DNA of 64,000 nucleotides from IMG/VR virus record IMGVR_UViG_3300024255_000001, one strand, 5' to 3'. Each line of letters starts with the position of its first letter. Positions within the stretch are counted from its first letter, which is position 1. The translations under genes were made by a program, and so were the position numbers. Under the pieces are notes generated by a model. The model ran no database searches. It was given only the letters and a program-made list of their open reading frames with translations, and had not been told where the DNA came from. Below, piece by piece: positions 5,217 to 64,000 of the stretch. This DNA comes from a virus.

Positions 5217-5302
<86 letters not shown>

Positions 5303-11514: not shown

Positions 11515-11536
11515 ATCTTTTATTTCTTATTTTATT

Positions 11537-11544
11537 TATATATC
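11537..11544 (-). promoter_or_regulatory. putative late promoter GATATATA
   Basis: Octamer upstream of the tube gene. Confidence 0.65.
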
Positions 11545-14406: not shown

Positions 14407-14438
14407 AATCTTTTAGTTATTATTTTTTATTCTTTTAT

Positions 14439-14446
14439 TATATATC
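14439..14446 (-). promoter_or_regulatory. putative late promoter GATATATA
   Basis: Octamer upstream of the sheath gene. Confidence 0.65.
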
Positions 14447-17013: not shown

Positions 17014-17178
17014 TTAACCAAGTGGTTCAATGCCGTTAGGTGGCGTAAGGTGATGTTTAGACTCTGGTTTCCAGTCTTTTAAATAATATTCTCTTAACTT
17101 TTTTCCTAGTTCGGAATCATTTGGCGTGTCTTCTACAAGTTTCATAACTTGTTTAAATCTATAATATGTGCCGTCCAT
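17014..17178 (-). CDS. small protein (54 aa), paralog of 42572..42775
   Basis: Manual translation MDGTYYRFKQVMKLVEDTPNDSELGKKLREYY... Confidence 0.65.
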   Translation of the reverse strand: MDGTYYRFKQVMKLVEDTPNDSELGKKLREYYLKDWKPESKHHLTPPNGIEPLG

Positions 17179-23289: not shown

Positions 23290-25206
23290 AATTATTTTCA
23301 TTTTATCAGCAATTGACATTGACTCATGCAATTCAATTTTCTGATTTATACCTAAGTCTTCTTTTAAAGACTCCCAAGTTAATTCTTTAGATTCGTTCTT
23401 GGCTTTTTGTTTTTTCTTAATTTCATCGAAGTCTCCATTCTTAACTGCTTTTAAATCTTTTGCAGCCTGGTCTACATCCTTTTGATCTTGAGGAATCTCT
23501 TTATCTTTTAATTCCTTCTCTCTATCTTTAAGATCTTCTTTTTTCTTTTTCAGATCTTCAATTTCATCTTTTGCAACTTGTACTGCAGCTTCTTGGTCAG
23601 AAGATTTAGCCTCTTCGACTTCTTCTTGTGAACCCACAGCCTCTTGATAATTTGATTTTGCAGATCCAACATCGGCCTTTGCATCTTCAATCTCAGTAAC
23701 ATCTCCGCCAAGCTCAGCTTTAGTTAATTTAGCTTGTGCAATTTCTAGTTTTTTTGACATAACATCTGGGTGGTTTCTTGAATTTAATTTATCCATTAAA
23801 CCCGGTAGTTCATCTTCTAACTTCTTAATTTGATCGTCCACTTTCTCAATATCTTCTGCACTAGGTGGATTGGAAGCCGCTACGGTTTCTTTTGCTTTTG
23901 TAATATCACCGTCAACCTTTTTAATTGCATCAGGTATTTCTGCTAATTCTTTCTCATCATCTTGTAATGACTTTTGAGCAGAAGCTAATTTATCTTGAGC
24001 TTTTTTAATTTCAGGATTTTTAGGTTCTTCTTCTTTTCCATCATCTTTCATTAAAGGATTACCACTATCTTCTGTATCGTCTTTAGTACTACCAGCTTTA
24101 GAATCTTTCTTTTCGTAATCTTCGCCCTTTAATGCAGCTCTTTGAGCTTTTAACTCTTCTAGGTAATCTTCTAAGTAGTAAATACCTTCTTGTGTTTTAT
24201 CTTCTTGTTGTTTCGCTGCCGCTAGCTCTGCCTCTAATTTACTTTTTTGTTCCGGATCTGCGTCTGCTAGATCTTTCTTAATATCAGCAATTTTAGATTG
24301 TACAGGTGCAAGATCCTCATCCTTTTCTCTATCAATTTCAATTTGAATTTTCTTAATATCCTCTTCTAACTTAGGATCGACATCTTTTGAAAGCTCTTTA
24401 ATAGCTTCATCTGCCTCTTTAGACTTGGCTCCCATTTTCTTAAGCTCATCAGCAGCCTCTTTTGCAGCATCTGATTTACCCTTTTCTTTTGCAATTCTAC
24501 CCTTTTCTCTTAGGCCTTCTAGCTTTGTTTCGTTAACAATTTTCTTTTTAGTATTAGCATAAAGATCTCCTTCGCTACCACTTGGCATATTCTCCTCATA
24601 CTTCTTTAGGTCTTCATTAGCATCTTCTAAAGCTTGTTTTGCCTGCTCTTTTACTTCTTCGAATTTTTCACTAAGATCTGACTTCTTATCTTTAAGTGCT
24701 TTAATTGTGGCAATTGCTTTTTGTTTGATTGCATCCTTTTTAGGACCAGCAGCTTCATCCCTAGCACGCTTCATTTTATCAATAGAAGCTTCTATTTTTT
24801 TTATTGCATCATATTCTTTAGCAGCAATAATATCTGCATTAGCATTAGAAAGTAAATCTTTATATTTACCTTTTAATAGAGCTATACCCTTTACGAAGTT
24901 GGCCTGTTTCTTAACCCATCCTAAGATTGCGTCTAGACTTTCGTTTAGTGGTCTATTTTCTTGAAAAAAAAAATCTTTATTTACAGTCTCTGTTATTTGC
25001 TTTGATAGTGTTTCTAAATTAGTTAGAATTTTATCCACATCTGCAATAATTTCTGCTCGAACCTTATCTCCTGTAGATTTAACAGTTTTATCAACTGGTA
25101 TAGAAGATGTGCTAGCATTACCTAAGGGTGCGACATTTTGGCCTGGGTTTGAAACCTCACCTGCAGCAAACTCTTCAAATAATTTTACTTTATTGGTTTT
25201 AATCAT
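23278..25206 (-). CDS. K/E-rich coiled-coil protein, probable internal head protein
   Basis: N-terminal KVKLFEEF, LNES/LHES sites, directly downstream of the capsid gene, late promoter at 25235-25242. Confidence 0.55.
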   Translation of the reverse strand: MIKTNKVKLFEEFAAGEVSNPGQNVAPLGNASTSSIPVDKTVKSTGDKVRAEIIADVDKILTNLETLSKQITETVNKDFFFQENRPLNESLDAILGWVKKQANFVKGIALLKGKYKDLLSNANADIIAAKEYDAIKKIEASIDKMKRARDEAAGPKKDAIKQKAIATIKALKDKKSDLSEKFEEVKEQAKQALEDANEDLKKYEENMPSGSEGDLYANTKKKIVNETKLEGLREKGRIAKEKGKSDAAKEAADELKKMGAKSKEADEAIKELSKDVDPKLEEDIKKIQIEIDREKDEDLAPVQSKIADIKKDLADADPEQKSKLEAELAAAKQQEDKTQEGIYYLEDYLEELKAQRAALKGEDYEKKDSKAGSTKDDTEDSGNPLMKDDGKEEEPKNPEIKKAQDKLASAQKSLQDDEKELAEIPDAIKKVDGDITKAKETVAASNPPSAEDIEKVDDQIKKLEDELPGLMDKLNSRNHPDVMSKKLEIAQAKLTKAELGGDVTEIEDAKADVGSAKSNYQEAVGSQEEVEEAKSSDQEAAVQVAKDEIEDLKKKKEDLKDREKELKDKEIPQDQKDVDQAAKDLKAVKNGDFDEIKKKQKAKNESKELTWESLKEDLGINQKIELHESMSIADKMKIILSR

Positions 25207-25269
25207 TTTTCGATATATGTGTTTGTCTATGTTTTATATATCTAGATATTTTTGCTTAATTTTTTATAT

Positions 25270-25326: not shown

Positions 25327-26700
25327 TTATAGTCTAAAAGCGCCAACAGTAAATTTCTCGTATTGAGTTTGTGGGTGGAATCCAGCTTCAACTAATGCGT
25401 ATCTAGATTTTACAGCTACTTTCGGAGCCATAGTACCTTCAACGATAGCTTGTACTGATTCAGCCATTAAGTAAGGCATGAATACAAGACCTGGACCGTT
25501 ACCGTCACCTTTTCTACCAACTAATACTTCACCAGAGTCAAATGCAACTGAAGGGTCAGTATAGATGTTAATACCTGCTACAGAACCTAAAGGATAGATT
25601 GAACCTGCAACTTGGTTAACAGTGTTAGCCATTGGGTAAGCAACGAAACCTGCTACAGATTGTAAAGCAGATGCCATTTTACCAGCTACAACAGCGAAGT
25701 TACCTGCACCTCTTCTACCGTTTTGCGCGATTAAGTTCGCAGCAGCAAGGATTGAAGTTAAGATAGCTCTGTGTTGGTCAGCGATAGTTTCACCACCAGA
25801 TAAAGCACCAGCAGCAGGAATAGTAAATCCTAAACCGTTAGTAGAACCAGCGATTGATCTCATCTTAGTTAAGATGTGGTTGTTGATAGACTGAGTTAAT
25901 TCGTTAGTTAAAACTGCTTCTACTTGAGCAACAGCGTCAACACCGAATTGTTTTAGATCTTGAACTTGCTCTCTAGTTACAGCAGCAGCTACTTGGAAAG
26001 TCTCTGCAGAAACTGATTTAGAGAATAAGCTTAAGCCCATTACTTTGTCTTCAGTTTGTTCCCCAGTACCTCTATCAAAAGGAGAACCAGCGTCATCAGC
26101 ACCAGAGAAACCAGGAATATGGTCTTCTAAAGCTTTTACTAATTCAGCACCAGCATATCTATCAGCAATGGTTGCTTCATCACCAGCTAACTCATCAACG
26201 ATTCTGATGATTGCTTTACCGTCGATTCTTGAGAAACCAACTCTTACGTCAGTTCCTACTTTATCTGAATTTTTGTCACCATACTTGATGTAAGTTGGAG
26301 TTGTTGAACCAGCTACTTTACCACCTTCGTATACGAAGTCTAGGTAAGATAAAAGACCCATTGGTCCAGCCATAGGTACAACAGGTACTAGGTCTAAACC
26401 GATTGTTTGAGCAGCAACTTGCATTGCTAAAGGTAATAACGTTGGTGATTTGTCACCTGAACCGTTAGCACCTGCACCACCTTGTGCAGTATTGTTACCT
26501 CCTGGGAAGCTTGTTGCTCCCATACCAAAGATGTTACCAGCAGTGCCTAAGGCCATGATGTTTGCATCTTCATAAAGCTTGTGATTGTGGCAGTATTCTG
26601 ACATCCAAGCTAGTTTTGCGCTTTCGTTAATTCCAGTTGCTTCCGAGATAATCGGAGACCAAGTGTTTCTAACTTCAGCTTCATTAATTAAATTTGCCAT
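25327..26700 (-). CDS. gp23: major capsid protein (gp23-like)
   Basis: DLVPVVPMAGPMG, QDLKQ, NELTQSIN, RRGAGNF, FMPY, KSRY motifs. Confidence 0.93.
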   Translation of the reverse strand: MANLINEAEVRNTWSPIISEATGINESAKLAWMSEYCHNHKLYEDANIMALGTAGNIFGMGATSFPGGNNTAQGGAGANGSGDKSPTLLPLAMQVAAQTIGLDLVPVVPMAGPMGLLSYLDFVYEGGKVAGSTTPTYIKYGDKNSDKVGTDVRVGFSRIDGKAIIRIVDELAGDEATIADRYAGAELVKALEDHIPGFSGADDAGSPFDRGTGEQTEDKVMGLSLFSKSVSAETFQVAAAVTREQVQDLKQFGVDAVAQVEAVLTNELTQSINNHILTKMRSIAGSTNGLGFTIPAAGALSGGETIADQHRAILTSILAAANLIAQNGRRGAGNFAVVAGKMASALQSVAGFVAYPMANTVNQVAGSIYPLGSVAGINIYTDPSVAFDSGEVLVGRKGDGNGPGLVFMPYLMAESVQAIVEGTMAPKVAVKSRYALVEAGFHPQTQYEKFTVGAFRL

Positions 26701-28962: not shown

Positions 28963-29024
28963 ATCTATGGTTTATCTATTTTTATTATATATCTTGTTGT
29001 ATTATACAAATATCTTAATATCTT

Positions 29025-29378
29025 TTAGACGCCTGCTAATGGGTCTTCTTCTCCGCCACCAGCATCTGCTTCGGCTTCTTTCTCTTCTTCCTTCTCTTGC
29101 TCAGCGTCCTCTGCCGATTTATCTAAATAATATGCTACTAGAACATCCATCTCACCTTCTGCGAAAGCATCTACTCCATACTCTGCATAGAAGTACTCTT
29201 TAAATTCGCCCTCTGTTTTAGAAGAAGTAATAACTCCTAATATTTCAGCGGATTTGATTGTAGGGCCAGAATCTAATTTTAAGTCTTCGACATAAATTTT
29301 AGAGTCTTCACCTGCCTTCATAGCATCCTCTGCTATAAAATCTTCAAAGGTTTTAATTATTTTAAAATCGTTTTTCAT
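29025..29378 (-). CDS. acidic prohead core / internal protein
   Basis: Between portal and protease; N-terminal IKTFEDFIAE resembles the T4 capsid-targeting sequence; GATATATA at 29383-29390. Confidence 0.55.
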   Translation of the reverse strand: MKNDFKIIKTFEDFIAEDAMKAGEDSKIYVEDLKLDSGPTIKSAEILGVITSSKTEGEFKEYFYAEYGVDAFAEGEMDVLVAYYLDKSAEDAEQEKEEEKEAEADAGGGEEDPLAGV

Positions 29379-29411
29379 AATTTATATATCTCTTTTTCTG
29401 GCGAATCTAGG

Positions 29412-42371: not shown

Positions 42372-42572
42372 TTAGAGTACGTTATCTTCTCCAAACTCAG
42401 CTTTTTCTTTTGCTCTAAGTTTTTCCAATTCTTCTAAGTAGTATTTAGCCTTTCCGCTTAATACTCTAATTTGATCTTGGACATCAGCAAGTCCGTGTAA
42501 GATTCTTTGGTATTCTCTTACATATTCTTGTTGATCTTCTGGTAAGTCTTCTATGTTAATCTTGCTGTCCAT
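42372..42572 (-). CDS. small hypothetical protein
   Basis: 66-aa ORF. Confidence 0.55.
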   Translation of the reverse strand: MDSKINIEDLPEDQQEYVREYQRILHGLADVQDQIRVLSGKAKYYLEELEKLRAKEKAEFGEDNVL

Positions 42573-42775
42573 TAATCCTCTGCTCTCCTAGCTACCTTAT
42601 CAATATCTTCTATTATTTCCTCATCTGGAAATTGTATCTTTAATTGATTAGGATCTGCTTGAGTTTTTTTCTGTGCCCAGTAGAACTCTCTTACTTTTTC
42701 ACCTAATTCCATATCATTAGGGTGTTGTTCTGCTAAAGCCATGATTTGTCTAAATTTGTAATATGTTCCGTCCAT
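42572..42775 (-). CDS. small protein with PNDxELG motif, paralog of 17014..17178
   Basis: MDGTYYKFRQIM...HPNDMELGEKVREFY. Confidence 0.65.
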   Translation of the reverse strand: MDGTYYKFRQIMALAEQHPNDMELGEKVREFYWAQKKTQADPNQLKIQFPDEEIIEDIDKVARRAED

Positions 42776-55498: not shown

Positions 55499-57217
55499 TT
55501 ATAGTGGCCAAATCATGGATGTGCCTGCATCATACCATTCACTATACCACCCTTTTTTATTAAGTTCCTTTTCCCACTTGTTATCTACACCAAACGTTCT
55601 GTTCTTGTAGTCTTCAGAGTAGTAGTCATAAATTACTCTACCCTTATACTCGTCCATATTTTCACCTGAAACCCAGATACCACCTTGAGAACCGTTAAAC
55701 TCTTCAGTAGTTCTTACAAAGTCCATATACTTTTCGATCCACTTAATCATAGCATCTCTATCCAGTTTCTTTTCGGTAACCAATGATTCTGCAAATGCTT
55801 CAATATCCCATTGAATTCTTTGCATTACATCTTCACCTCTAAATTCTTTCTTAGCCCATTGTAATAGACCTGGTTCATGTTTAGCATTTTGTGCCATATC
55901 GAATGCATTCTTCCAACCATCATTAGAAGCTACATCTTCAATCCATTGATCGTATTTCTTTCTATTCCATCTTACTGTCTTAACAGCTTTCTTGTGTGGT
56001 CCGTCTCCTAATGTAGAAGTGGCAGCGTCATAAGAACCTGGAATAAAAACTCCTAAGTCTTTACCGTCACCATATTTAATCTCTTTTCTAAATCTTCTTA
56101 AAGAATATTCACCACCTTCAATTTGCTTTCTTCTTGAAACTTCTCCCTGAGATGTACCGATTGCAATCTTCATATCTTCAGCTTTCTTTGGATCAGTTTC
56201 AAAATGTAAATCTCTTACTGCGTTTTCAAGTAAGGCCTCTTCATAAATTTTGGAGTCTGTCGCCTCTGACATCATTTCCTCTTGAGCGAACTTGTTATAC
56301 TCTTTTGACCACTTCTTCCATTCAGCATCAGTAGCATAGTCTTCTAATACATCGACTACATCTTTATTACCTTTTTGTTCGATAACTTGATCTGCAATCC
56401 ATCTACCTGCTTTTGCGTTTAAGTAGTAAAGTGCTCCGGCATCAGAGAATTTGTAAGCTTCAGTTAACCATGCCATTGCAGAATGCCAACAGTCTTCAAT
56501 ATCTTTACGTCTAAAACCAGCAGTATCTAATGTACCCCAAAAACCATAGGATTCATTAACATCATCAATTGAATATTGATTTTTCTTACCAAACTTAAAT
56601 GCCTCGCTAACCAATGATTCACTTACAAATAAATTAAACTGTGTATATAGATTAAAGTTTTCCATCTCTAATTTCTTTTTTGTTTTATCTTTCTTAGTCT
56701 CTTCCTCGTCATCATCAATATCTGCGACAGCAGGAACATCACCAGAACCTACACCACCATCAGAAGGTAGAACCACAGGGCCCATACCGCCTATATTAGC
56801 ACTAGGTGTAATATTTTGTGCTGCAAGTGCAACATTTTCATCTACTGCAACACCTCGCTTTTTTAAGATCTTTTCAATTTCTTGGTAAGCTTTCTTGTAT
56901 TCCGATTTAGAGTAGTGCATTCCTTTAGCATAGTTAGCATAACCATCTAATGCTCCATTATACATTCCTAGTAATTCTTCATCTGACATACTATTATTAA
57001 ATACAAACGGGCCAATAAATGCTTCATCTACCGTCTCTGGTAAATTATCATGTTTTGTTGAAGCGTATTTCTTTAGATCTTTCTTTGTCATTTCGTCTGA
57101 TAATGATTTTACTTTGTCTCTGTAAGCTGGGTCGATGTCTGAGATTTCCATGTCGCCGGATTTAACAGCGTATGCCATTCCCATTAATCTTTGTTGTGAC
57201 TTACTTACAGAAGGCAT
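55499..57217 (-). CDS. modular protein with N-terminal DUF3008-like domain, probable internal head polyprotein
   Basis: MPSVSKSQQRLMGMAYAVK...ASTKH; repeated VDE/VSE/VNE/LLE/VTE linkers. Confidence 0.55.
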   Translation of the reverse strand: MPSVSKSQQRLMGMAYAVKSGDMEISDIDPAYRDKVKSLSDEMTKKDLKKYASTKHDNLPETVDEAFIGPFVFNNSMSDEELLGMYNGALDGYANYAKGMHYSKSEYKKAYQEIEKILKKRGVAVDENVALAAQNITPSANIGGMGPVVLPSDGGVGSGDVPAVADIDDDEEETKKDKTKKKLEMENFNLYTQFNLFVSESLVSEAFKFGKKNQYSIDDVNESYGFWGTLDTAGFRRKDIEDCWHSAMAWLTEAYKFSDAGALYYLNAKAGRWIADQVIEQKGNKDVVDVLEDYATDAEWKKWSKEYNKFAQEEMMSEATDSKIYEEALLENAVRDLHFETDPKKAEDMKIAIGTSQGEVSRRKQIEGGEYSLRRFRKEIKYGDGKDLGVFIPGSYDAATSTLGDGPHKKAVKTVRWNRKKYDQWIEDVASNDGWKNAFDMAQNAKHEPGLLQWAKKEFRGEDVMQRIQWDIEAFAESLVTEKKLDRDAMIKWIEKYMDFVRTTEEFNGSQGGIWVSGENMDEYKGRVIYDYYSEDYKNRTFGVDNKWEKELNKKGWYSEWYDAGTSMIWPL

Positions 57218-57218
57218 A

Positions 57219-57773
57219 TTATTTTGCGTCTATTTGGATATATTCTGAATCTCTGATTTCAAGATTATTATTACCAACTTGGCTATCATATTCACCATAG
57301 ATAACATCCTTGCTATTTGCTAATGGAGAATTCATCATTCCAGTTTTATCAATCTTCTTGTATAACTTGTTACCGTTAACATCATCCGGGAAACCAACAT
57401 TAATTACCATCTCGTTGTACTTTGCGTAAGATATGTATAAAGCGCCAGAACCGTCTGAACTGTTTAATCCATTGATTTCATCAACTTTCCATTCTTCAGT
57501 TAAGTTAGCTGTTACAAATAATACTGACTCCATGTCTTTTGCTCCTTTTTCAACAGCATCTAAAATAATCTTTTCAGCATCTTTCTTAAAACCGCTCCAT
57601 TCTTTATTAACTTCTTTTAAAGTTGCAGCTGAATCTCCTTCATATTTAACTTTTGCAATTTCTTGTTTAAAGGCTTGCATTACTTTACCTATAATGCCTT
57701 TAGCCGCATAGATTCCTGTCATTCTATATGACTTTTCGTTTAAAAATTGTTCGAATGTTGGGATTGTTTTCAT
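57219..57773 (-). CDS. probable internal head protein
   Basis: N-terminal MKTIPTFEQFLNE. Confidence 0.55.
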   Translation of the reverse strand: MKTIPTFEQFLNEKSYRMTGIYAAKGIIGKVMQAFKQEIAKVKYEGDSAATLKEVNKEWSGFKKDAEKIILDAVEKGAKDMESVLFVTANLTEEWKVDEINGLNSSDGSGALYISYAKYNEMVINVGFPDDVNGNKLYKKIDKTGMMNSPLANSKDVIYGEYDSQVGNNNLEIRDSEYIQIDAK

Positions 57774-57785
57774 ATCTCTATTATA

Positions 57786-60344
57786 TTACCAAGCGTAATC
57801 GAATCCTTCGATTTTAGCTATTTTTTCTTTAAGTGATAAAGCGTAATTCTTAATCTCTCTTTTATACCAAGATTCAGATGAACCAAATCTTTTTTCAGAT
57901 TCTTCTTCTTGTCTAACATAATCACAATATCTAGAATAATCATCTAATATATTTGACATGTGATTAGAAGCATCTCTTAATTTAACCTCTTTTCCTTTTG
58001 CACTTTGACCAATTTTGATTTCATCGTATCTAGTCTTTTCACCACTAGCTAAACCTGTTTTAATTTGATCGGTTAACATATCGATTGCATCTGCTACCAT
58101 TTTATCTAATGGCATTGTTGCAGCCTTAGTAGATAAAATTTGGTGGTATCTGTCGTTGTTAGCTTTCTTAAAATCTTTATCATTAGTAAATGCAATTGCA
58201 CCTGATTTAGCTTCAGCTCTAGCTGCTCTTAATTGGTCAGTAGAATACTTTTGTCTAATTAGGTCTAGGTTAATAACAAGAACTCTATCAGAAACTTCTG
58301 CGATTCTTTTACCATTATTAAGTCCAGTTCCTGACCAGCCTCTGTATTTATGTGATACACCAACTTGGTCATCTTTACCTTTTTTACCGTCTTTCTTAAA
58401 TGCTCTATTTTGTGAGTATCTAGACCAGTCATTAGTATAAAATTCTCTATCGCCAGACATTGCTGCTATTAGAGTACCTCCACCTGGTATAGTTTTTAAA
58501 GCACCATAACCAGCATCATAAGGAGTATATGGATTTTCTTTTTCGTTATCAGATATAAAGAATAGTATATGTTTTGATCCACCATGTTCTTTAAACACCT
58601 TAGTTGGATCATTACTTATTACCATATCCTCATCACCTACTTTATCTAATGCAACTTTAGCTAATTGGTAAAAACCGCCAGCTAATTGCTTTAAATTTTG
58701 CTTACCGTATTTACCTTCTTTGTTACTCATTAGAACGCTAGCTAGTAAGCTGCTGCCTAATGCTTCGTTAAGAAAGTTAGCTCCAACGAAGTCGCTAAAT
58801 GACTCAAACAAGTTTATTTCGTTTTTCATATTTGTATTTGTATTTTCTTCTAGTTTTTTTGCGGCTAAATCTTTATCTCTTTTAGAAACATTATCTAAGT
58901 AGGAACCATCTCCCCAGAATTTAACAACTAATTCAGTTTGAGTAGTTGAATGCATGCCTGGTTTGTAGACTGCAATATCTCTTAGTTTTTTATTAGAAGC
59001 GATAGTTTTCTTCATAAAGTCTAGTGCTTGTTTCTCGTTTCTAAACTTTTTCATAGCACTTACGCCGTCACTATAAATAACTTCATAGTTTTCAGTAATT
59101 GCTGATTCTTCAACATGTAGATTTACATATCTGCTACCTTTTTCTGAGTAAACTGAAGTAATTTTAAAATCACCTTTAATTGATTTACCAGTATCTTGTT
59201 TGTAGTATTTAGCATAATAAGCTTTAAAGAATAAGTTTGGTTCTAGTTCTCCAAAGAAGTGTGACAGTTTACCTACATAAAATTCAGCTTTAGGATATAC
59301 TTTTAAAACATCTTTTTCTGTTTCAGCATCTAGAACTGCTTTATCAAATTCTTTTACAAATTTAGCTTCAGTAACTTCAGATTCTTTAACAACTAATTCT
59401 GCATCTATAGCTACTTCATGTGAAATAGTCTCTAAACCATTAATTAAAATTGTACCATCCTTTTGCATGCCGGTAACTTCACCAGAATCAAAAGGTTTTT
59501 TAGAACTTCTGCTTAGAATAGAAACTCTATCGCCTATTTTAAATTTAGCTTCAGTAACTGATTCATCAATACCTTTGTAAATTAAAGTGTCCCAATGAAC
59601 ATCCTGTACCTCGTCTCTATAATCAGCATATACGTCAACTTCCCAATTACCGCCTTCTTGATCTACTCCCATGAAATAAAGATCTTTACCCTCATTACCG
59701 TGGTCATCAATCGTATCATATTCGTCAAATTCTATTTCGTATTTCTTACCTTTATATTTAACAACAGCACTAGGCCAATCAGATTTTGTAACCTTAATCT
59801 TCTCGTTTACTACTGACTCTTCGATATACTCTCCAAGTTCTGGATCGTCCCATCCATCAGGAGATGCTAAAACTGATTGTAGATCTTCTCTTGAACCTGT
59901 TAGCTCAACTTCTGGCCAACCACTCGGTCCACTAGGATCTAAAACTTTCATTGTAACTTTATGTTTCTTTAAAAGTTTTTTAAGTATCTTTGATTTAGGA
60001 TCCATTGCATCCATAACTACTGTAGCTTCGAATACTTCAGCAGCTTTAGGAGTTTCATCTAGTTCAGCTAGAATTCTACGACCCCATTTTGAAAGCTTTA
60101 CACCCTCTTCAGAAACATTAAAGTACTTTCTATTTCTAGAAGTCCATTGGCTTGAACTAGTAGATAATTCAGAAAGAATCTTGTTAAACTCTTCTCTTGT
60201 CACTACACCGTCTTTAATAGCTTGTAGGACTGCATTTCTTACATTAGCAGTTTTACCTACAGTTTGAGCTGGGTGGTTCTCTGTATATTTTCTTTTGATT
60301 TGCAATTTCTTGCCTTCCGATAAAAAGTCTTCGAATTTCGTCAT
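57786..60344 (-). CDS. modular probable internal head polyprotein
   Basis: N-terminal MTKFEDFLSE; modules separated by ESVVNE, ESVTE, ESEVTE, ESAITE, FLNE. Confidence 0.55.
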   Translation of the reverse strand: MTKFEDFLSEGKKLQIKRKYTENHPAQTVGKTANVRNAVLQAIKDGVVTREEFNKILSELSTSSSQWTSRNRKYFNVSEEGVKLSKWGRRILAELDETPKAAEVFEATVVMDAMDPKSKILKKLLKKHKVTMKVLDPSGPSGWPEVELTGSREDLQSVLASPDGWDDPELGEYIEESVVNEKIKVTKSDWPSAVVKYKGKKYEIEFDEYDTIDDHGNEGKDLYFMGVDQEGGNWEVDVYADYRDEVQDVHWDTLIYKGIDESVTEAKFKIGDRVSILSRSSKKPFDSGEVTGMQKDGTILINGLETISHEVAIDAELVVKESEVTEAKFVKEFDKAVLDAETEKDVLKVYPKAEFYVGKLSHFFGELEPNLFFKAYYAKYYKQDTGKSIKGDFKITSVYSEKGSRYVNLHVEESAITENYEVIYSDGVSAMKKFRNEKQALDFMKKTIASNKKLRDIAVYKPGMHSTTQTELVVKFWGDGSYLDNVSKRDKDLAAKKLEENTNTNMKNEINLFESFSDFVGANFLNEALGSSLLASVLMSNKEGKYGKQNLKQLAGGFYQLAKVALDKVGDEDMVISNDPTKVFKEHGGSKHILFFISDNEKENPYTPYDAGYGALKTIPGGGTLIAAMSGDREFYTNDWSRYSQNRAFKKDGKKGKDDQVGVSHKYRGWSGTGLNNGKRIAEVSDRVLVINLDLIRQKYSTDQLRAARAEAKSGAIAFTNDKDFKKANNDRYHQILSTKAATMPLDKMVADAIDMLTDQIKTGLASGEKTRYDEIKIGQSAKGKEVKLRDASNHMSNILDDYSRYCDYVRQEEESEKRFGSSESWYKREIKNYALSLKEKIAKIEGFDYAW

Positions 60345-60346
60345 GA

Positions 60347-60760
60347 TTATTTTACTTTAATTTTTGCTTGGTGTCCATTAGTTTCAGTGTATTGAAATGA
60401 AAATTTAGACTTTGCAAATAAAGTACCCATTGTAAAAGAAACAAAAGTTCCTTCTGGGTTTTTCATTGCTACGTTATATGCGTCTCCAGCTGCAGCCTCG
60501 TCATCAAAAATACCGATAATATTCTTTGAAGTTGAAGATCCTATTCTAATTTCACCCTGTAGTCTAACAGATTGCCCATTAAAATCTACATTGTTATGTG
60601 CCATTAATAAATACTTAGTTGCACCCTTTTCTGGAAGGTTATCACTATGTTCTCCAAACTCGGTTCTTGTATTAAAGTAATATGAACCAAACGGTATGCT
60701 TTCATTTACTGCTTGATTTGAGCTTTCTCTAAAGCTTTCGAATGATTTTATATTTTTCAT
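60347..60760 (-). CDS. probable internal head protein
   Basis: N-terminal MKNIKSFESFRES...AVNES. Confidence 0.55.
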   Translation of the reverse strand: MKNIKSFESFRESSNQAVNESIPFGSYYFNTRTEFGEHSDNLPEKGATKYLLMAHNNVDFNGQSVRLQGEIRIGSSTSKNIIGIFDDEAAAGDAYNVAMKNPEGTFVSFTMGTLFAKSKFSFQYTETNGHQAKIKVK

Positions 60761-60779
60761 ATTAATATGTTATATTTGT

Positions 60780-62639
60780 TTATATATTCTTTAAAAAATC
60801 ATCGAAGGTTAGGAATTCTGGTTGTGCAGATTCTGCAGCAACTCCCATCGAGTCTTCTAATTTCATTTTTAGTTCTCCGTACATACCATGTATATCCTTA
60901 GGAGTTAATTTCTTAAATAGTCTTTCATCACCATCAAGCATTGCGTTTCTAACCTGAGTTGCTGAGATATTCTTACCTGATCTTGGAATTTCAAATAAAC
61001 CAAAATCGTCTCTTACGCCTAGATCGTCTCTATATTCTTGTTTATCTGCTTGATAACTATAGACTTTCATTCTATCGGTTCCAGTTCCCCATAATACTGG
61101 CTCGTATTGCGGTCTTAATTCATTAAACATTTTATCAATTGCTGCAGTAGGTAAAATCTTTACATCTTCAATTGGATATGAAGATTTTAATTTTTGTAAC
61201 ATTGATAGTTGAGTATCTTCATCATAAGGTCTCTTAAATGCATCTTCTGCTTTCTTAGTTCTAGACTTAATTAAAAAGATAACTACTGGATAACCGTTTT
61301 GTTTATAGATAGTTTCAATAACTTTAGCATGGCCTAATGTAAATGGCTGGAATCTACCAACAAACATATTTACAGGCTTCTTACCTTGATCTTTATACTT
61401 AACAGTTAAGCCTTCCATGATTGGACTGACTTGAGCTGAAATTTTTTGGTTTAATAAATATTGTTTAAAATCCATTACGTCTGATTCATTTGCTTTTGCC
61501 ATTATTAAACCCTCAATGGTTTCAACGATCTCGTTGATCTGCTCCATTAAATCTTTATTAATAAGGTCAGTTTCTTTAGTTCTCTTTTTTCTAAAAGAGC
61601 CTAATACAATTTTAAATAACTCAGATAGTATCTTATCTTGTACTAAAGTAAGTGTCTTTTCGTTTTGAATAAACTTATTGTTTAATTCAAACATAGGAGA
61701 TTCAGAGAAGTCTGCGGAGTCAAATTTAGCACCAATATATTTTGTAGCATTTTTTTCTACATAATTATTAAAAATAGATGACATTAATTCTAAATATCTT
61801 CTATCTGTCTTTTCTTCTTTTAATTCTATTGATGAGAAATCAAATTGTGCTAAATGTTCTACAACATCTAAAATTGTAATTTGATACATGTCTGATGGTT
61901 TTCTTGGATCCATCTGTTTTTTATTAAACTTCTCTAATTTAAAAGATTGTAATTCTGTTCCGTCATGAAAATTAACAATAAACCCTGCAACATCTTTTGA
62001 AAGATCGTTCATTAAAGCAGATTGCTTCATATTCCCATTGAAAATACCGAATACTGTTCTTGTAAAGCTAGGCTTCTCAAAGTCTTCAAACGTCTGTTCA
62101 AATTCATTAACCGACATTGCAAGAATTTGTTTTAATCTATCCTTTTGACCTGAGTCAAGTTGACCTTCAAATAATATAGGTGGTTTTGAAACATTTAGTT
62201 TATTCGCCCACTTATTAAGTATCTTGGTATCTCTAATTACCTTTCTAACTTTATTAGGATTGGATGGTTGTAAAACTTGTATATGCGTTAAAATTAAATT
62301 TGATTCTGGTAAAACATCATACTCCACATCAATTGTTTTATTATCGCCAAGATATTCAAATCCAAACTTCCAGTCAAATGGCATATCTTCTATAACTTCT
62401 TTAGAAACAGACTTAAAGTGGCGAATTGCGTTCTCGTAGTATCTGACGATTGTACGATCTACTATATCCATTGGTTGCTTAGAACCAGATTTATAGTATG
62501 CAAAATCAGTACCTTGTCTTCTTGCATGAAAAGATGAACCGTTGATTTTCTCAGTCACAATACATTTGTGGCTAAGTAGTTTATCAACGTCTGCTGTGTT
62601 AGCTCCTTCGAAATATGTTTTTAAATTGTCTAATGCCAT
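60780..62639 (-). CDS. RNA-ligase-like domain fused to HIGH-family nucleotidyltransferase
   Basis: TEKINGSS (motif I), FGFEY, AGFIV, SFK; C-terminal GRFQPFTLGH, GTDR, ISATQVR. Confidence 0.7.
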   Translation of the reverse strand: MALDNLKTYFEGANTADVDKLLSHKCIVTEKINGSSFHARRQGTDFAYYKSGSKQPMDIVDRTIVRYYENAIRHFKSVSKEVIEDMPFDWKFGFEYLGDNKTIDVEYDVLPESNLILTHIQVLQPSNPNKVRKVIRDTKILNKWANKLNVSKPPILFEGQLDSGQKDRLKQILAMSVNEFEQTFEDFEKPSFTRTVFGIFNGNMKQSALMNDLSKDVAGFIVNFHDGTELQSFKLEKFNKKQMDPRKPSDMYQITILDVVEHLAQFDFSSIELKEEKTDRRYLELMSSIFNNYVEKNATKYIGAKFDSADFSESPMFELNNKFIQNEKTLTLVQDKILSELFKIVLGSFRKKRTKETDLINKDLMEQINEIVETIEGLIMAKANESDVMDFKQYLLNQKISAQVSPIMEGLTVKYKDQGKKPVNMFVGRFQPFTLGHAKVIETIYKQNGYPVVIFLIKSRTKKAEDAFKRPYDEDTQLSMLQKLKSSYPIEDVKILPTAAIDKMFNELRPQYEPVLWGTGTDRMKVYSYQADKQEYRDDLGVRDDFGLFEIPRSGKNISATQVRNAMLDGDERLFKKLTPKDIHGMYGELKMKLEDSMGVAAESAQPEFLTFDDFLKNI

Positions 62640-62647
62640 AATAGTTT

Positions 62648-63919
62648 TTATCTACCGTATTTAATAATGCCCATTAACTGGTTAATAGCGGCAAAAGTAC
62701 CCGTTAACTTGAATGTTTTACCATTGTATTTAAAGACTAGGCCTTCTGTTGGAATGATTGACTCAATACCGCCGATACCTTCTAGCCTCTTTAATTCTTT
62801 TTCTACCTTCTCAATCTGTTTTAGATCACCGTTCTTTTTAACTTTATCTGCCTCAGTTCTGATTTGCTTATGTAATCTTGCTTTCTCAGCTTCTGGATTA
62901 GCAGCAACAAAATTGGAAACGTTCTTTAAAACATCTGCACCTAATTCTAAAAATAGGTTCTCGAAAGGTAGAATGTTTTCTTTATACTTCTTGTTTCTTT
63001 GACCATCAAAATCTTTGACGGCTTTTGCTTGTTCTGGAGTAACTGCATTCTTTAATTCTCTCATATTTAGAGTCTTCTTGTCTAAATATGCCCATCTTAA
63101 TAAGAGTCCCTCTTTTAATACTGAGTCTAAATCTCCAAAGTTCTCTTCGATTTGGTTTCTCCACCACATCTCGTGATACATTTTAACCTCATCTTGATCT
63201 GATAGACTATAAGTATCTCTCAGTTTATTTATCGCCTTTTCGTAATAGCCGACTCTATCATCAAAGTTAATGTCTTTTCCTAACTTTAAAATTTGAGGGG
63301 GAATTATTGTAAACGTATTTTGCACATCCGCTTTTAGCTCTTTAAGTGCTTTAACTATTTCTGATGCGATATTCTCTTCACCTATGATATTACCCTCACC
63401 ATCAGTAACTTTCATACCGTGGAATTGAATAACATCTCTGTCATAATAAATTACATTAGGGTTTTTAGAGTAAATTAACTCCATATTGATAAAAGACTTA
63501 CCATCTTGGAATACAGATTGGTCCTTAAGCTTTGGGAGTGCGTCTGCTAGGTCTTTAGCAGCAAAGATGAATGTTTCTTCAACCAGCTTCGAAGCGTGGC
63601 CAGTGAACATCTTAATGATACCATTTAAGTCGAGTGGATTGGCTAATTGTCCCTTATTTCTAGCGAACATAGCATTACCATCCTTTACAGTTGCAAATAC
63701 ATTCTGACCATCTGTCTTTTCAGTTGGTGCCTCTTCAAAATCAAGACCTCCTTGTAGTGCAGATCTTACAATAGTTTTAAAATCAGCAAATGTTAATGAG
63801 TGGTCATCGAATGGATGCATCATGTGGCCAGCGGCCCCACCTTCAAATACGAAATTGTCCAAGTTATTGACCTGGACTTTCTCGCTTAAGAATTCTTTAA
63901 ATGTATATAGTTTCTTCAT
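62648..63919 (-). CDS. RNA-ligase-like nucleotidyltransferase (GGAAGHM family)
   Basis: N-terminal MKKLYTFKEFLSE; GGAAGHMMHPFD, TEKTDGQN, NMELIY, EGLVF, FKLTG. Confidence 0.65.
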   Translation of the reverse strand: MKKLYTFKEFLSEKVQVNNLDNFVFEGGAAGHMMHPFDDHSLTFADFKTIVRSALQGGLDFEEAPTEKTDGQNVFATVKDGNAMFARNKGQLANPLDLNGIIKMFTGHASKLVEETFIFAAKDLADALPKLKDQSVFQDGKSFINMELIYSKNPNVIYYDRDVIQFHGMKVTDGEGNIIGEENIASEIVKALKELKADVQNTFTIIPPQILKLGKDINFDDRVGYYEKAINKLRDTYSLSDQDEVKMYHEMWWRNQIEENFGDLDSVLKEGLLLRWAYLDKKTLNMRELKNAVTPEQAKAVKDFDGQRNKKYKENILPFENLFLELGADVLKNVSNFVAANPEAEKARLHKQIRTEADKVKKNGDLKQIEKVEKELKRLEGIGGIESIIPTEGLVFKYNGKTFKLTGTFAAINQLMGIIKYGR

Positions 63920-63938: not shown

Positions 63939-64000
63939 TTATCCTAACGATGATTGTAATGCACCAACTGCTGCACCATAGTCACCGTCGTGTTTAGTTA
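63939..64000 (-). CDS. C-terminal end of a gene starting beyond the window
   Basis: ...TKHDGDYGAAVGALQSSLG-stop. Confidence 0.4.
   Translation of the reverse strand, partial: TKHDGDYGAAVGALQSSLG

Follow-up and report, generated by a model that had tools for sequence, protein, structure and literature searches.

Does a giant T4-like phage load its head with strings of small proteins that its own prohead protease then separates? This question is raised by a gene cluster at 55499-63919 of the virus record IMGVR_UViG_3300024255_000001, which we analyzed as one window of 64,000 nucleotides. The window has a G+C content of 34%, and every long open reading frame (ORF) lies on the minus strand. Pfam and PHROG searches identified T4-type head and tail genes (portal, major capsid protein, prohead protease, terminase and sheath) and also a clamp loader. 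A first-pass annotation had proposed that the cluster encodes capsid-targeted proteins, some of which are built as protease-cleavable modular polyproteins. Judging from sequence comparisons and structure models, we consider it fairly likely that these proteins are head cargo, docked by a T4-type targeting tag and separated by the Peptidase_S77 prohead protease.

The capsid-targeting sequence (CTS) of T4 is MKTYQEFIAE, and suppressor genetics assigned targeting to residues 4 and 7 and processing to residues 8 and 10 (PMC9026906). The claim that six ORFs share a start signal of this kind was borne out for the minus-strand ORFs beginning at 63919 (YTFKEFLSE/K; the slash marks the predicted cut), 60760 (KSFESFRES...AVNE/S), 60344 (KFEDFLSE/G), 57773 (PTFEQFLNE/K), 29378 (KTFEDFIAE/D) and 25206 (KLFEEFAAGE/V), the last copy being weaker. 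The first four of these encode proteins of 423, 137, 852 and 184 amino acids (aa) in the cluster, and the last two encode proteins of 117 and 642 aa in the head module. KTFEDFIAE, KFEDFLSE, TFEQFLNE and TFKEFLSE carry an aromatic residue, a second aromatic residue, L/I and Glu at T4 CTS positions 4, 7, 8 and 10, respectively; SFESFRES and LFEEFAAGE showed a poorer fit to this spacing. When 69 minus-strand ORFs (20,254 aa) were scanned for F..F[LIV].E, six matches were obtained, four of which start within residues 1-11; one more is an internal copy in the 572-aa protein of the cluster and one is unrelated. Because the start regions make up less than 4% of all positions, this clustering of leaders is far from chance. 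A looser N-terminal pattern, [FY]xx[FYW], was present in 171 of 701 unique ORFs of related loci, a count that includes a few unrelated ORFs.

Among related phages the leader was conserved, while the mature parts were mutually unrelated and variable. The leaders differ in length (10-22 residues here), and every time they end in (V/I/L)-x-E directly before a conserved mature N-terminus; the sites in this phage have the form (V/I/L)-(N/T/S)-E. Leaders of the 137-aa orthologues varied in length and always placed V-(N/D)-E just before the conserved mature start, and those of the 184-aa orthologues ended in LNE, followed by a conserved K(S/A/T)YR(M/L)(T/S)G. For the 423-aa protein, 32 orthologues and the 462-kb megaphage LR756500.1 have kept the leader. 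The signal is not confined to N-termini. As the first-pass annotation had noticed, internal copies are present in the 852-aa ORF (residues 506-527, ending NFLNE/A) and in the 572-aa ORF (residues 185-205, ending SLVSE/A), and the 619-aa protein has LTFDDFL at its C-terminus. In each of the 30 orthologues of the 619-aa protein, the C-terminus reads ...(M/L/V/A)-A-E-S-x(3-5)-(L/M)-T-F-x-x-F-(I/L)..., a cut-site-like sequence and then the signal. In T4, Alt and gp21 also undergo C-terminal processing (PMC9026906).

These positions bear on the possibility that the proteins are not associated with the virion at all, the N-terminal peptide being a translation-initiation or mRNA signal, or a cytoplasmic interaction tag, on proteins that act late in the infected cell. 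The cluster adjoins DNA-metabolism genes and lies about 26 kb from the head module, which would suit such a role. However, the peptide cannot act on translation initiation where it is internal or C-terminal, its spacing agrees at every residue with the functionally mapped T4 CTS, one of the genes bearing it lies inside the head module, and late-promoter-like motifs are common to the cargo and structural genes. We therefore regard this explanation as very improbable.

If the leader marks head cargo, the 852- and 572-aa ORFs would be composite cargo (Table 1). The first-pass annotation had described both as unrelated modules of about 60-100 aa joined by ES-type linkers. The linkers are present in the 852-aa ORF as ESVVNE181, ESVTE265, ESEVTE326 and ESAITE418, and in the 572-aa ORF as ESLVSE205, which ends the internal leader, and ESLVTE482. 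The four in the 852-aa ORF compare with 0.36 expected from shuffling (P about 0.0015). A scan with a looser pattern found the joint form with T, N or S as its penultimate residue in these two ORFs only within the window. An additional junction site, VFE106/A107, which the earlier annotation had missed, was recognized in the 852-aa ORF. The modules are indeed unrelated and linker-joined, but their sizes span 61 to 325 aa, a wider range than had been described. Neither ORF contains a protease domain in Pfam and PHROG scans, and the sole head protease is encoded by the separate gene about 26 kb away.

We then asked whether the joints look like protease sites. In a set of 151 proteins (85,069 aa), the pattern ES.{0,2}[VIL][TNS]E matched 262 times, compared with 4.1 ± 1.9 times in shuffled sequences. 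For a motif-independent test, we took the eight residues (P8 to P1) before each homology-defined start of the M5, M6 and M7 module families, which gave 140 distinct junctions. P1 was Glu in 135 of the 140 (4.07 bits) and P3 was V, L or I in 136 (2.64 bits); P2 was mostly N or T (2.36 bits), and P4-P8 carried just 0.65-1.43 bits. The information is thus concentrated at P1 and P3, where the T4 gp21 family reads its substrates, the rule for which is hydrophobic-x-Glu with cleavage after Glu (PMC5694885, PMC9026906). Sites of the same form were conserved in the proteins that T4-type proteases process. The N-terminus of the major capsid protein, MANLINE/AE, is conserved and has the same site form as the cargo linkers. 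The 717-aa ORF that joins the Peptidase_S77 protease to a scaffold, aligned with five relatives, shows a conserved LLIVE close to the N-terminus and (I/V)(V/I)E sites toward the C-terminus, in the scaffold tail. The N-terminal site of T4 gp21 itself is LIE-9. We infer from these residues that the specificity of the protease would extend to the joints, and the 717-aa Peptidase_S77 fusion is presumed to be the enzyme that processes the cargo sites.

The distribution of modules among relatives was next compared. A scan of viral contigs yielded 57 related loci (numbered with L), in which the gene corresponding to the 852-aa ORF ranged from 335 to 1111 aa and almost always ended in FDYAW. M1-M7 occurred in varied order and as varied subsets, and gains and losses fell at the linkers, with alignments ending at the predicted boundaries, in accord with the comparison that had been suggested. 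Locus L001 has the arrangement M1-M2-M3-M5-M6-leader-M7; M4 alone is absent, and the L001 and L002 orthologues both lack exactly this module. L026 has M2-M1-x-M5-M6-x-M7, and in L044 M2 is found at 99% identity within an unrelated 680-aa ORF. A search of 1.8 billion representative proteins returned 668 related clusters, in which M7 ends chains of 400-1100 aa or stands alone (about 330 aa). The stand-alone M7 proteins have a leader of the same kind, and their mature part always begins with A(F/L)(K/G)S directly after (V/I/L)-x-E. Stand-alone and fused alike, M7 directly followed hydrophobic-x-E in 84 of 85 cases. Many fused forms retain the Met and leader of a once-separate gene and therefore are gene fusions.

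Modules of the 572-aa protein were similarly mobile. The DUF3008 module (N1) stands alone as a 125-aa protein in L054, N2 occurs after a leader, N4 occurs inside M7-type proteins, and N6 follows ES(V/L/T)V(N/T)E. Adjacent tandem joint sites also occur in relatives. Among 919 proteins sampled, 227 had at least one joint and 40 had at least four. Reciprocal-coverage clustering of segments of 35-130 aa gave at least 138 sequence clusters of single-module size in this small sample, and the members of each cluster took up varying positions in the chains. Single-linkage clustering of the segments between linkers was rejected, as it merged most modules through uncut multi-module segments.

The tagged block of LR756500.1 (L068, 253957-279855), an uncultured megaphage, retains the synteny but is organized differently. 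Tagged genes of the 423- and 619-aa types are present, along with small ORFs that bear the tag and a DUF3008 protein whose C-terminus is ...KTFNEFKTEYK. The block consists of separate small ORFs with leaders such as MKFLKSYEEFLNE, MEFVKTYLEFINE and MEYVKLFEEFVND, and no chains linked by ES-V-V-T/N-E joints were found in it. Because this phage has tagged genes without joint-linked chains, the tag system looks older than its elaboration into polyproteins.

The DNA of the joints probably offers a route for the shuffling. A direct repeat around M4, the module absent from L001, encodes two linker/module-start joints (Table 1), and both linkers of the 572-aa gene are a 17-nt direct repeat. The repeats suggest that the joints very probably double as in-frame recombination sites.

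AlphaFold models were examined to determine whether the linkers separate folded domains. Leader plus M7, modeled with 84 homologues, had a mean predicted local distance difference test (pLDDT) score of 86.3, with the leader reaching only 50-56. In the model of the whole 852-aa protein (34 collinear orthologues), M1, M2, M3 and M7 were confident. The pLDDT fell below 50 at residues 98-105 (the M1/M2 junction), at 177-181, which is exactly SVVNE, from residue 263 (M3/M4), and at 459-526, a stretch covering the latter half of M6 and the internal leader. The linkers therefore lie between folded domains, and not inside them, at the three junctions for which the model allowed a judgment, as had been anticipated.

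Several observations weigh against the interpretation as cleaved head cargo. M4-M6, for which the alignment was too shallow, had low confidence in the 852-aa model. A function was recognized for no module in Pfam, PHROG, ESM Atlas, Foldseek, VIA-align or the PDB. Most modules are acidic (isoelectric point [pI] 4.4-5.8; M1, M6 and M7 are basic, with a pI of 9-10, and the remainder acidic or neutral), whereas T4 internal proteins are basic. The 572-aa protein and some relatives with DUF3008 have no N-terminal tag. T4 gp21 is not known to prefer N/T at P2 or E-S at P6-P5. A search of 50,697 deposited phage genomes turned up no cultured relative: neither the cargo region nor the 852-aa protein had a close DNA or protein relative there, and a divergent M7 representative matched only the uncultured megaphage LR756500.1. 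Finally, 13 of 18 ESVVTEA joints from non-identical ORFs share one 21-mer, compared with 0.6% expected from codon usage; because these instances lack phylogenetic independence, the binomial value can serve as an indication only. As the joints are probably recombination sites, part of their conservation is explained by recombination or recent copying.

The last point leads to an alternative in which the proteins are uncut multidomain 'polyvalent' proteins, in the head or in the cell, whose joints are flexible linkers containing recombination DNA and which lose at most an N-terminal leader. Conservation of the linker DNA far beyond codon usage and the direct repeats around M4 and at both linkers of the 572-aa gene are in line with it, and large multidomain proteins are packaged uncut elsewhere, for example the virion RNA polymerase of N4 (PMC5512222). 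Conservation in divergent joints is not evenly spread, however, but keeps P1 Glu and P3 V/L/I, as the protease rule demands. Leaders of unrelated proteins share the same three-residue ending, which also stands before M7 with the single exception mentioned above, and adjacent tandem sites would be needless in a mere linker. On balance, we judge uncut chains to be quite unlikely.

A second alternative accepts targeting and cutting but takes the products to be assembly or packing material: parts of the scaffold or core, filler that packs DNA or adjusts pressure, or expelled peptides like the fragments of T4 gp22, gp67 and gp68. Both the acidic 117-aa core-type protein and the K/E-rich 642-aa head-module protein carry the same leader as the cargo candidates, most modules are acidic and without an assigned function, and in T4 the cleavage of core proteins yields several fragments, most of which leave the head (PMC9026906). 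Nevertheless, the diverse, fast-shuffled repertoire (the at least 138 clusters of the small sample) fits an arms race better than filler, and the modules modeled by AlphaFold are confidently folded small domains rather than low-complexity peptides. The locus also includes enzyme-like cargo, with a nicotinamide mononucleotide adenylyltransferase (NMNAT)-like domain, and module sizes (7-11 kDa) equal those of the retained T4 internal proteins IPI and IPII (PMC9026906). We consider packing material an unlikely, though not far-fetched, identity for the products.

Docked and cleaved head cargo remains the interpretation that we favor, and the proposal of a cluster of cleavable polyproteins stands in part. 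Leader spacing, the S77 protease gene, the gain, loss and reordering of modules at linkers, the hydrophobic-x-Glu junctions and the three interdomain junctions support the polyprotein reading, and part of the linker conservation may reflect recombination instead. As for the extent of the cluster, the 423-, 137-, 852- and 184-aa proteins carry the leader, but the 572-aa ORF has no N-terminal signal and begins with DUF3008.

The system might work as follows. During prohead formation, a peptide of the form aromatic-x-x-aromatic-(L/I/V)-x-E would dock each protein on the scaffolding core; this tag is N-terminal in the 423-, 137-, 852- and 184-aa proteins, internal in the 852- and 572-aa proteins, and C-terminal in the 619-aa protein. 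The Peptidase_S77 prohead protease would cut after Glu in (V/I/L)-(N/T/S)-E and so remove the leaders. The same cuts at ES-x-V-(T/N)-E would split the 852- and 572-aa chains into modules of 61-166 aa and the 325-aa M7, and one targeting tag could thereby load up to seven different proteins in equal numbers. The pieces would remain in the head with the DNA and would probably be released into the host at infection. Recombination between joint repeats would add, remove or reorder modules in frame, with the cut site preserved. We further infer that the cargo may be ejected and may act as effectors.

Compared with known systems, the closest likeness is to the T4 internal proteins. In both, a short leader at the N-terminus has two aromatic residues, three positions apart, ahead of hydrophobic-x-Glu; both have a gp21-family (Peptidase_S77) protease alongside T4-type portal and capsid genes; and in both a conserved leader is attached to unrelated, fast-evolving proteins, with mature products of about 8-20 kDa (predicted in the present case). 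In T4, however, these proteins are separate genes cut once, whereas here up to seven modules stand behind one leader with repeated cut-site linkers; the signal is also internal and C-terminal, and the site is V-(N/T)-E after E-S. Homology to the mature parts of the T4 internal proteins or Alt was not detected in Pfam and PHROG searches, and the acidity of most modules is a further difference.

Polyvalent proteins, which phages and conjugative elements encode (Iyer et al. 2017, PMC5512222), are defined by two to fifteen unrelated domains per polypeptide. The 852- and 572-aa proteins, with seven and six modules, fall within this range, folds being seen by AlphaFold for M1, M2, M3 and M7 only. 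They share with that class the many unrelated domains per polypeptide, an origin in phages with portal and terminase, a proposed travel with the DNA and the analogy drawn to viral polyproteins (PMC5512222). In contrast, polyvalent proteins are released, where at all, by an embedded peptidase (zincin-like MPTase), whereas the presumed cutter here is a separate prohead protease, and that class is characterized neither by a regular six-residue joint nor by a T4-type leader. Neither the hallmark domains of polyvalent proteins (ART, MuF, PBECR, ParB-like and others) nor an embedded peptidase was found in the six cluster proteins by Pfam and PHROG.

The ejection and inner-body proteins of phiKZ, 201phi2-1 and SPN3US are likewise internal to the head and are processed by a gp21-related prohead protease that recognizes a short motif and cuts after its Glu (PMC5694885, PMC7411985, PMC10052503). 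They differ in losing propeptides of about 100 residues or more at (A/S/G)-x-E, and chains of interchangeable modules are not part of their description; the cargo proteins showed neither a sequence relation to the phiKZ-type inner-body family nor a Pfam match to it. Polyproteins of eukaryotic RNA viruses offer an analogy without homology: one product is cut at repeated short sites with fixed stoichiometry, but here the protease lies outside the chain and the proposed purpose is capsid loading and not genome expression. A literature search, thin on subscription journals, returned no description of CTS-led, joint-linked cargo polyproteins in T4-like phages and no papers on DUF3008.

Searches for function gave few leads. 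For the six proteins of the cargo locus, Pfam and PHROG returned only CTP_transf_like, DUF3008 and PHROGs of unknown function. M7 matched nothing in Pfam or PHROG, had no usable match in ESM Atlas and none below an E-value of 0.09 in Foldseek, and its AlphaFold model gave only generic helical-bundle matches at the C-terminal helices in VIA-align. When the 852-aa model was compared with the PDB, the sole hint was the winged-helix DNA-binding domain of CggR (73 columns, probability 0.99, E-value 0.23), which probably corresponds to M1; M1 may therefore be a winged helix. The CTP_transf_like match (E-value 2.8e-8) is in the 619-aa protein, where an NMNAT profile from the PDB (E-value 1.3e-5) also points to an NMNAT-like HxGH nucleotidyltransferase domain. 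The 423-aa protein had no match in Pfam, PHROG or PDB sequence searches. Its invariant E-K-T-D-G and a near-invariant E-K-(I)-x-x-S-S-F-H close to the N-terminus of the 619-aa protein are reminiscent of motif I in covalent nucleotidyltransferases. A reading of the two proteins as paired and RNA-ligase-like gained no support, as PDB profile searches found no ligase and profile-profile comparison showed no relation between the families.

Gene order in the cargo block is conserved: a 502-aa ORF, a modular ORF, the 423- and 619-aa genes, a gene of 131-137 aa, the 852-type gene, the 184-aa gene and the 572-type gene. Relatives have additional small leader-bearing ORFs in the block. The 3' end of another modular ORF lies at the end of the window and continues past it. 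In relatives the cargo block opens with this ORF, which has 477-690 aa, starts with MGSLKLQSFEDF and is preceded by GATATATAA.

Table 1. Positions of the cargo genes, their predicted parts and other features in the 64,000-nt window
Feature	Position	Strand	Residues	Remarks
852-aa polyprotein	57786..60344	minus		leader, modules M1-M7 and internal leader
Leader	60315-60344	minus	1-10
M1	60027-60314	minus	11-106
M2	59802-60026	minus	107-181
M3	59550-59801	minus	182-265
M4	59367-59549	minus	266-326
M5	59091-59366	minus	327-418
M6	58830-59090	minus	419-505
Internal leader	58764-58829	minus	506-527
M7	57789-58763	minus	528-852
572-aa polyprotein	55499..57217	minus		no N-terminal leader; modules N1-N6 and internal leader
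N1 (DUF3008)	57023-57217	minus	1-65
N2	56837-57022	minus	66-127
N3	56666-56836	minus	128-184
Internal leader	56603-56665	minus	185-205	MENFNLYTQFNLFVSESLVSE
N4	56264-56602	minus	206-318
N5	55772-56263	minus	319-482
N6	55502-55771	minus	483-572
423-aa cargo candidate	62648..63919	minus		leader MKKLYTFKEFLSE/K at 63881-63919
619-aa cargo candidate	60780..62639	minus		no N-terminal leader; NMNAT-like domain and C-terminal tail signal
NMNAT-like domain of 619-aa protein	60885-61385	minus	about 419-585
Tail signal of 619-aa protein	60783-60815	minus		FxxF(L/I) signal in ...GVAAE603/SAQPEFLTFDDFLKNI
137-aa cargo candidate	60347..60760	minus		leader MKNIKSFESFRESSNQAVNE/S at 60701-60760; conserved mature N-terminus (S/K)I.FGSYYF
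184-aa cargo candidate	57219..57773	minus		leader MKTIPTFEQFLNE/K at 57735-57773
3' end of another modular ORF	63944-64000	minus
Direct repeat	59351..59559			26 nt, 88% identical, exact 19-mer, spacing 183 nt
GATATATA(A/G), examples	29382-29390, 28985-28993, 14438-14446, 11536-11544	minus		late-promoter-like; 14 sites in window
GATATATAA	29382-29390, 25234-25242	minus		motif scan; before 117-aa gene and 642-aa gene, respectively
AATATATAA	60780..60788	minus		late-promoter-like; 20-28 nt upstream of 137-aa gene
Major capsid protein	25327..26700	minus		Gp23 family; Pfam Gp23 E 3.1e-45
Prohead protease plus acidic scaffold, 717 aa	26809..28962	minus		one ORF; Peptidase_S77, T4 gp21 family; PF03420 E 8e-13; PHROG 207
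Head-core-type protein, 117 aa	29025..29378	minus		small, acidic; between portal and protease; leader ...KTFEDFIAE/D at 29328-29378
K/E-rich protein, 642 aa	23278..25206	minus		after capsid gene; weaker leader ...KLFEEFAAGE/V at 25156-25206
tRNA-Ser gene	5217-5302	minus		anticodon TGA
Paralogous small ORFs	42572-42775, 17014-17178	minus		67 and 54 aa, respectively

The motif GATATATA(A/G) occurs 14 times in the window, all on the coding strand, compared with 3.07 expected. It is placed just upstream of the portal, core, protease, capsid, sheath, tube and other structural genes, and is likely, from this placement, to be the late-promoter consensus of the phage clade; it differs from the T4 late promoter TATAAATA. 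In the relatives examined, the same motif stands 41-47 nt ahead of the gene that opens the cargo block, and the block would therefore be expressed late. Within the block, AATATATAA precedes the 137-aa gene, and in the relatives examined it lies 26-29 nt before the gene following the 619-aa ORF. Taken by itself, AATATATAA shows no enrichment, with 3 copies observed in the window and 3.96 expected. The copy before the 137-aa gene coincides with the last three codons (N-I-stop) of the 619-aa gene, and the conserved ...KNI end of the 619-aa protein may be under constraint from both promoter and peptide.

The head module is of T4 type, with a portal of the Portal_T4 family (Pfam E-value 6.7e-72). 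Judged by the capsid protein, uncultured megaphages (LR756500.1, 48% identity) and Lak phages are its nearest relatives among deposited genomes. The 117-aa gene occupies the position where T4 has the small core proteins gp67 and gp68, and its leader is conserved in five relatives; that of the 642-aa protein is conserved in L063. About 160 residues of (V/E)EETEE-type acidic repeats are located in the middle of the 717-aa ORF. The protease-scaffold fusion is kept in five relatives (632-734 aa), with repeat regions that are very different among them. Elsewhere in the window, the tRNA-Ser gene lies amid small ORFs, and the two small paralogous ORFs both start with MDGTYY(K/R)F(R/K)Q(I/V)M...PND.ELG.K(V/L)RE(F/Y)Y.

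The T4 internal proteins are the classic phage proteins that are injected with the DNA against host defenses, and to our knowledge T4-type internal proteins are known as single genes in a handful of coliphages. A broader scheme for the present locus is combinatorial delivery, which we put forward tentatively and consider possible but doubtful as a whole. A six-residue peptide, encoded by about 21 nt of DNA, would be both cut site and recombination joint, and a clade of marine T4-like giant phages would share well over 100 small folded modules, strung in any combination behind one capsid-targeting tag, packed in equal numbers, released by the protease and injected as a mixture of effectors for anti-defense or host takeover, in what would amount to an integrase-free cassette array. 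If the cargo interpretation is true, abundant uncultured marine relatives of T4 have made internal proteins into a polyprotein system in which one tag serves many cargos and modules are exchanged quickly. The 668 clusters related to one gene and the at least 138 module clusters would then represent a large pool of small folded anti-defense candidates, and a sequence rule (leader plus V-(N/T)-E joints) would predict virion cargo from metagenomes. The arrangement would also be a natural design for loading several proteins into T4-type capsids, which are already delivery vehicles, and would clearly exemplify a short element under selection as a peptide and, at the same time, as a site of DNA recombination.

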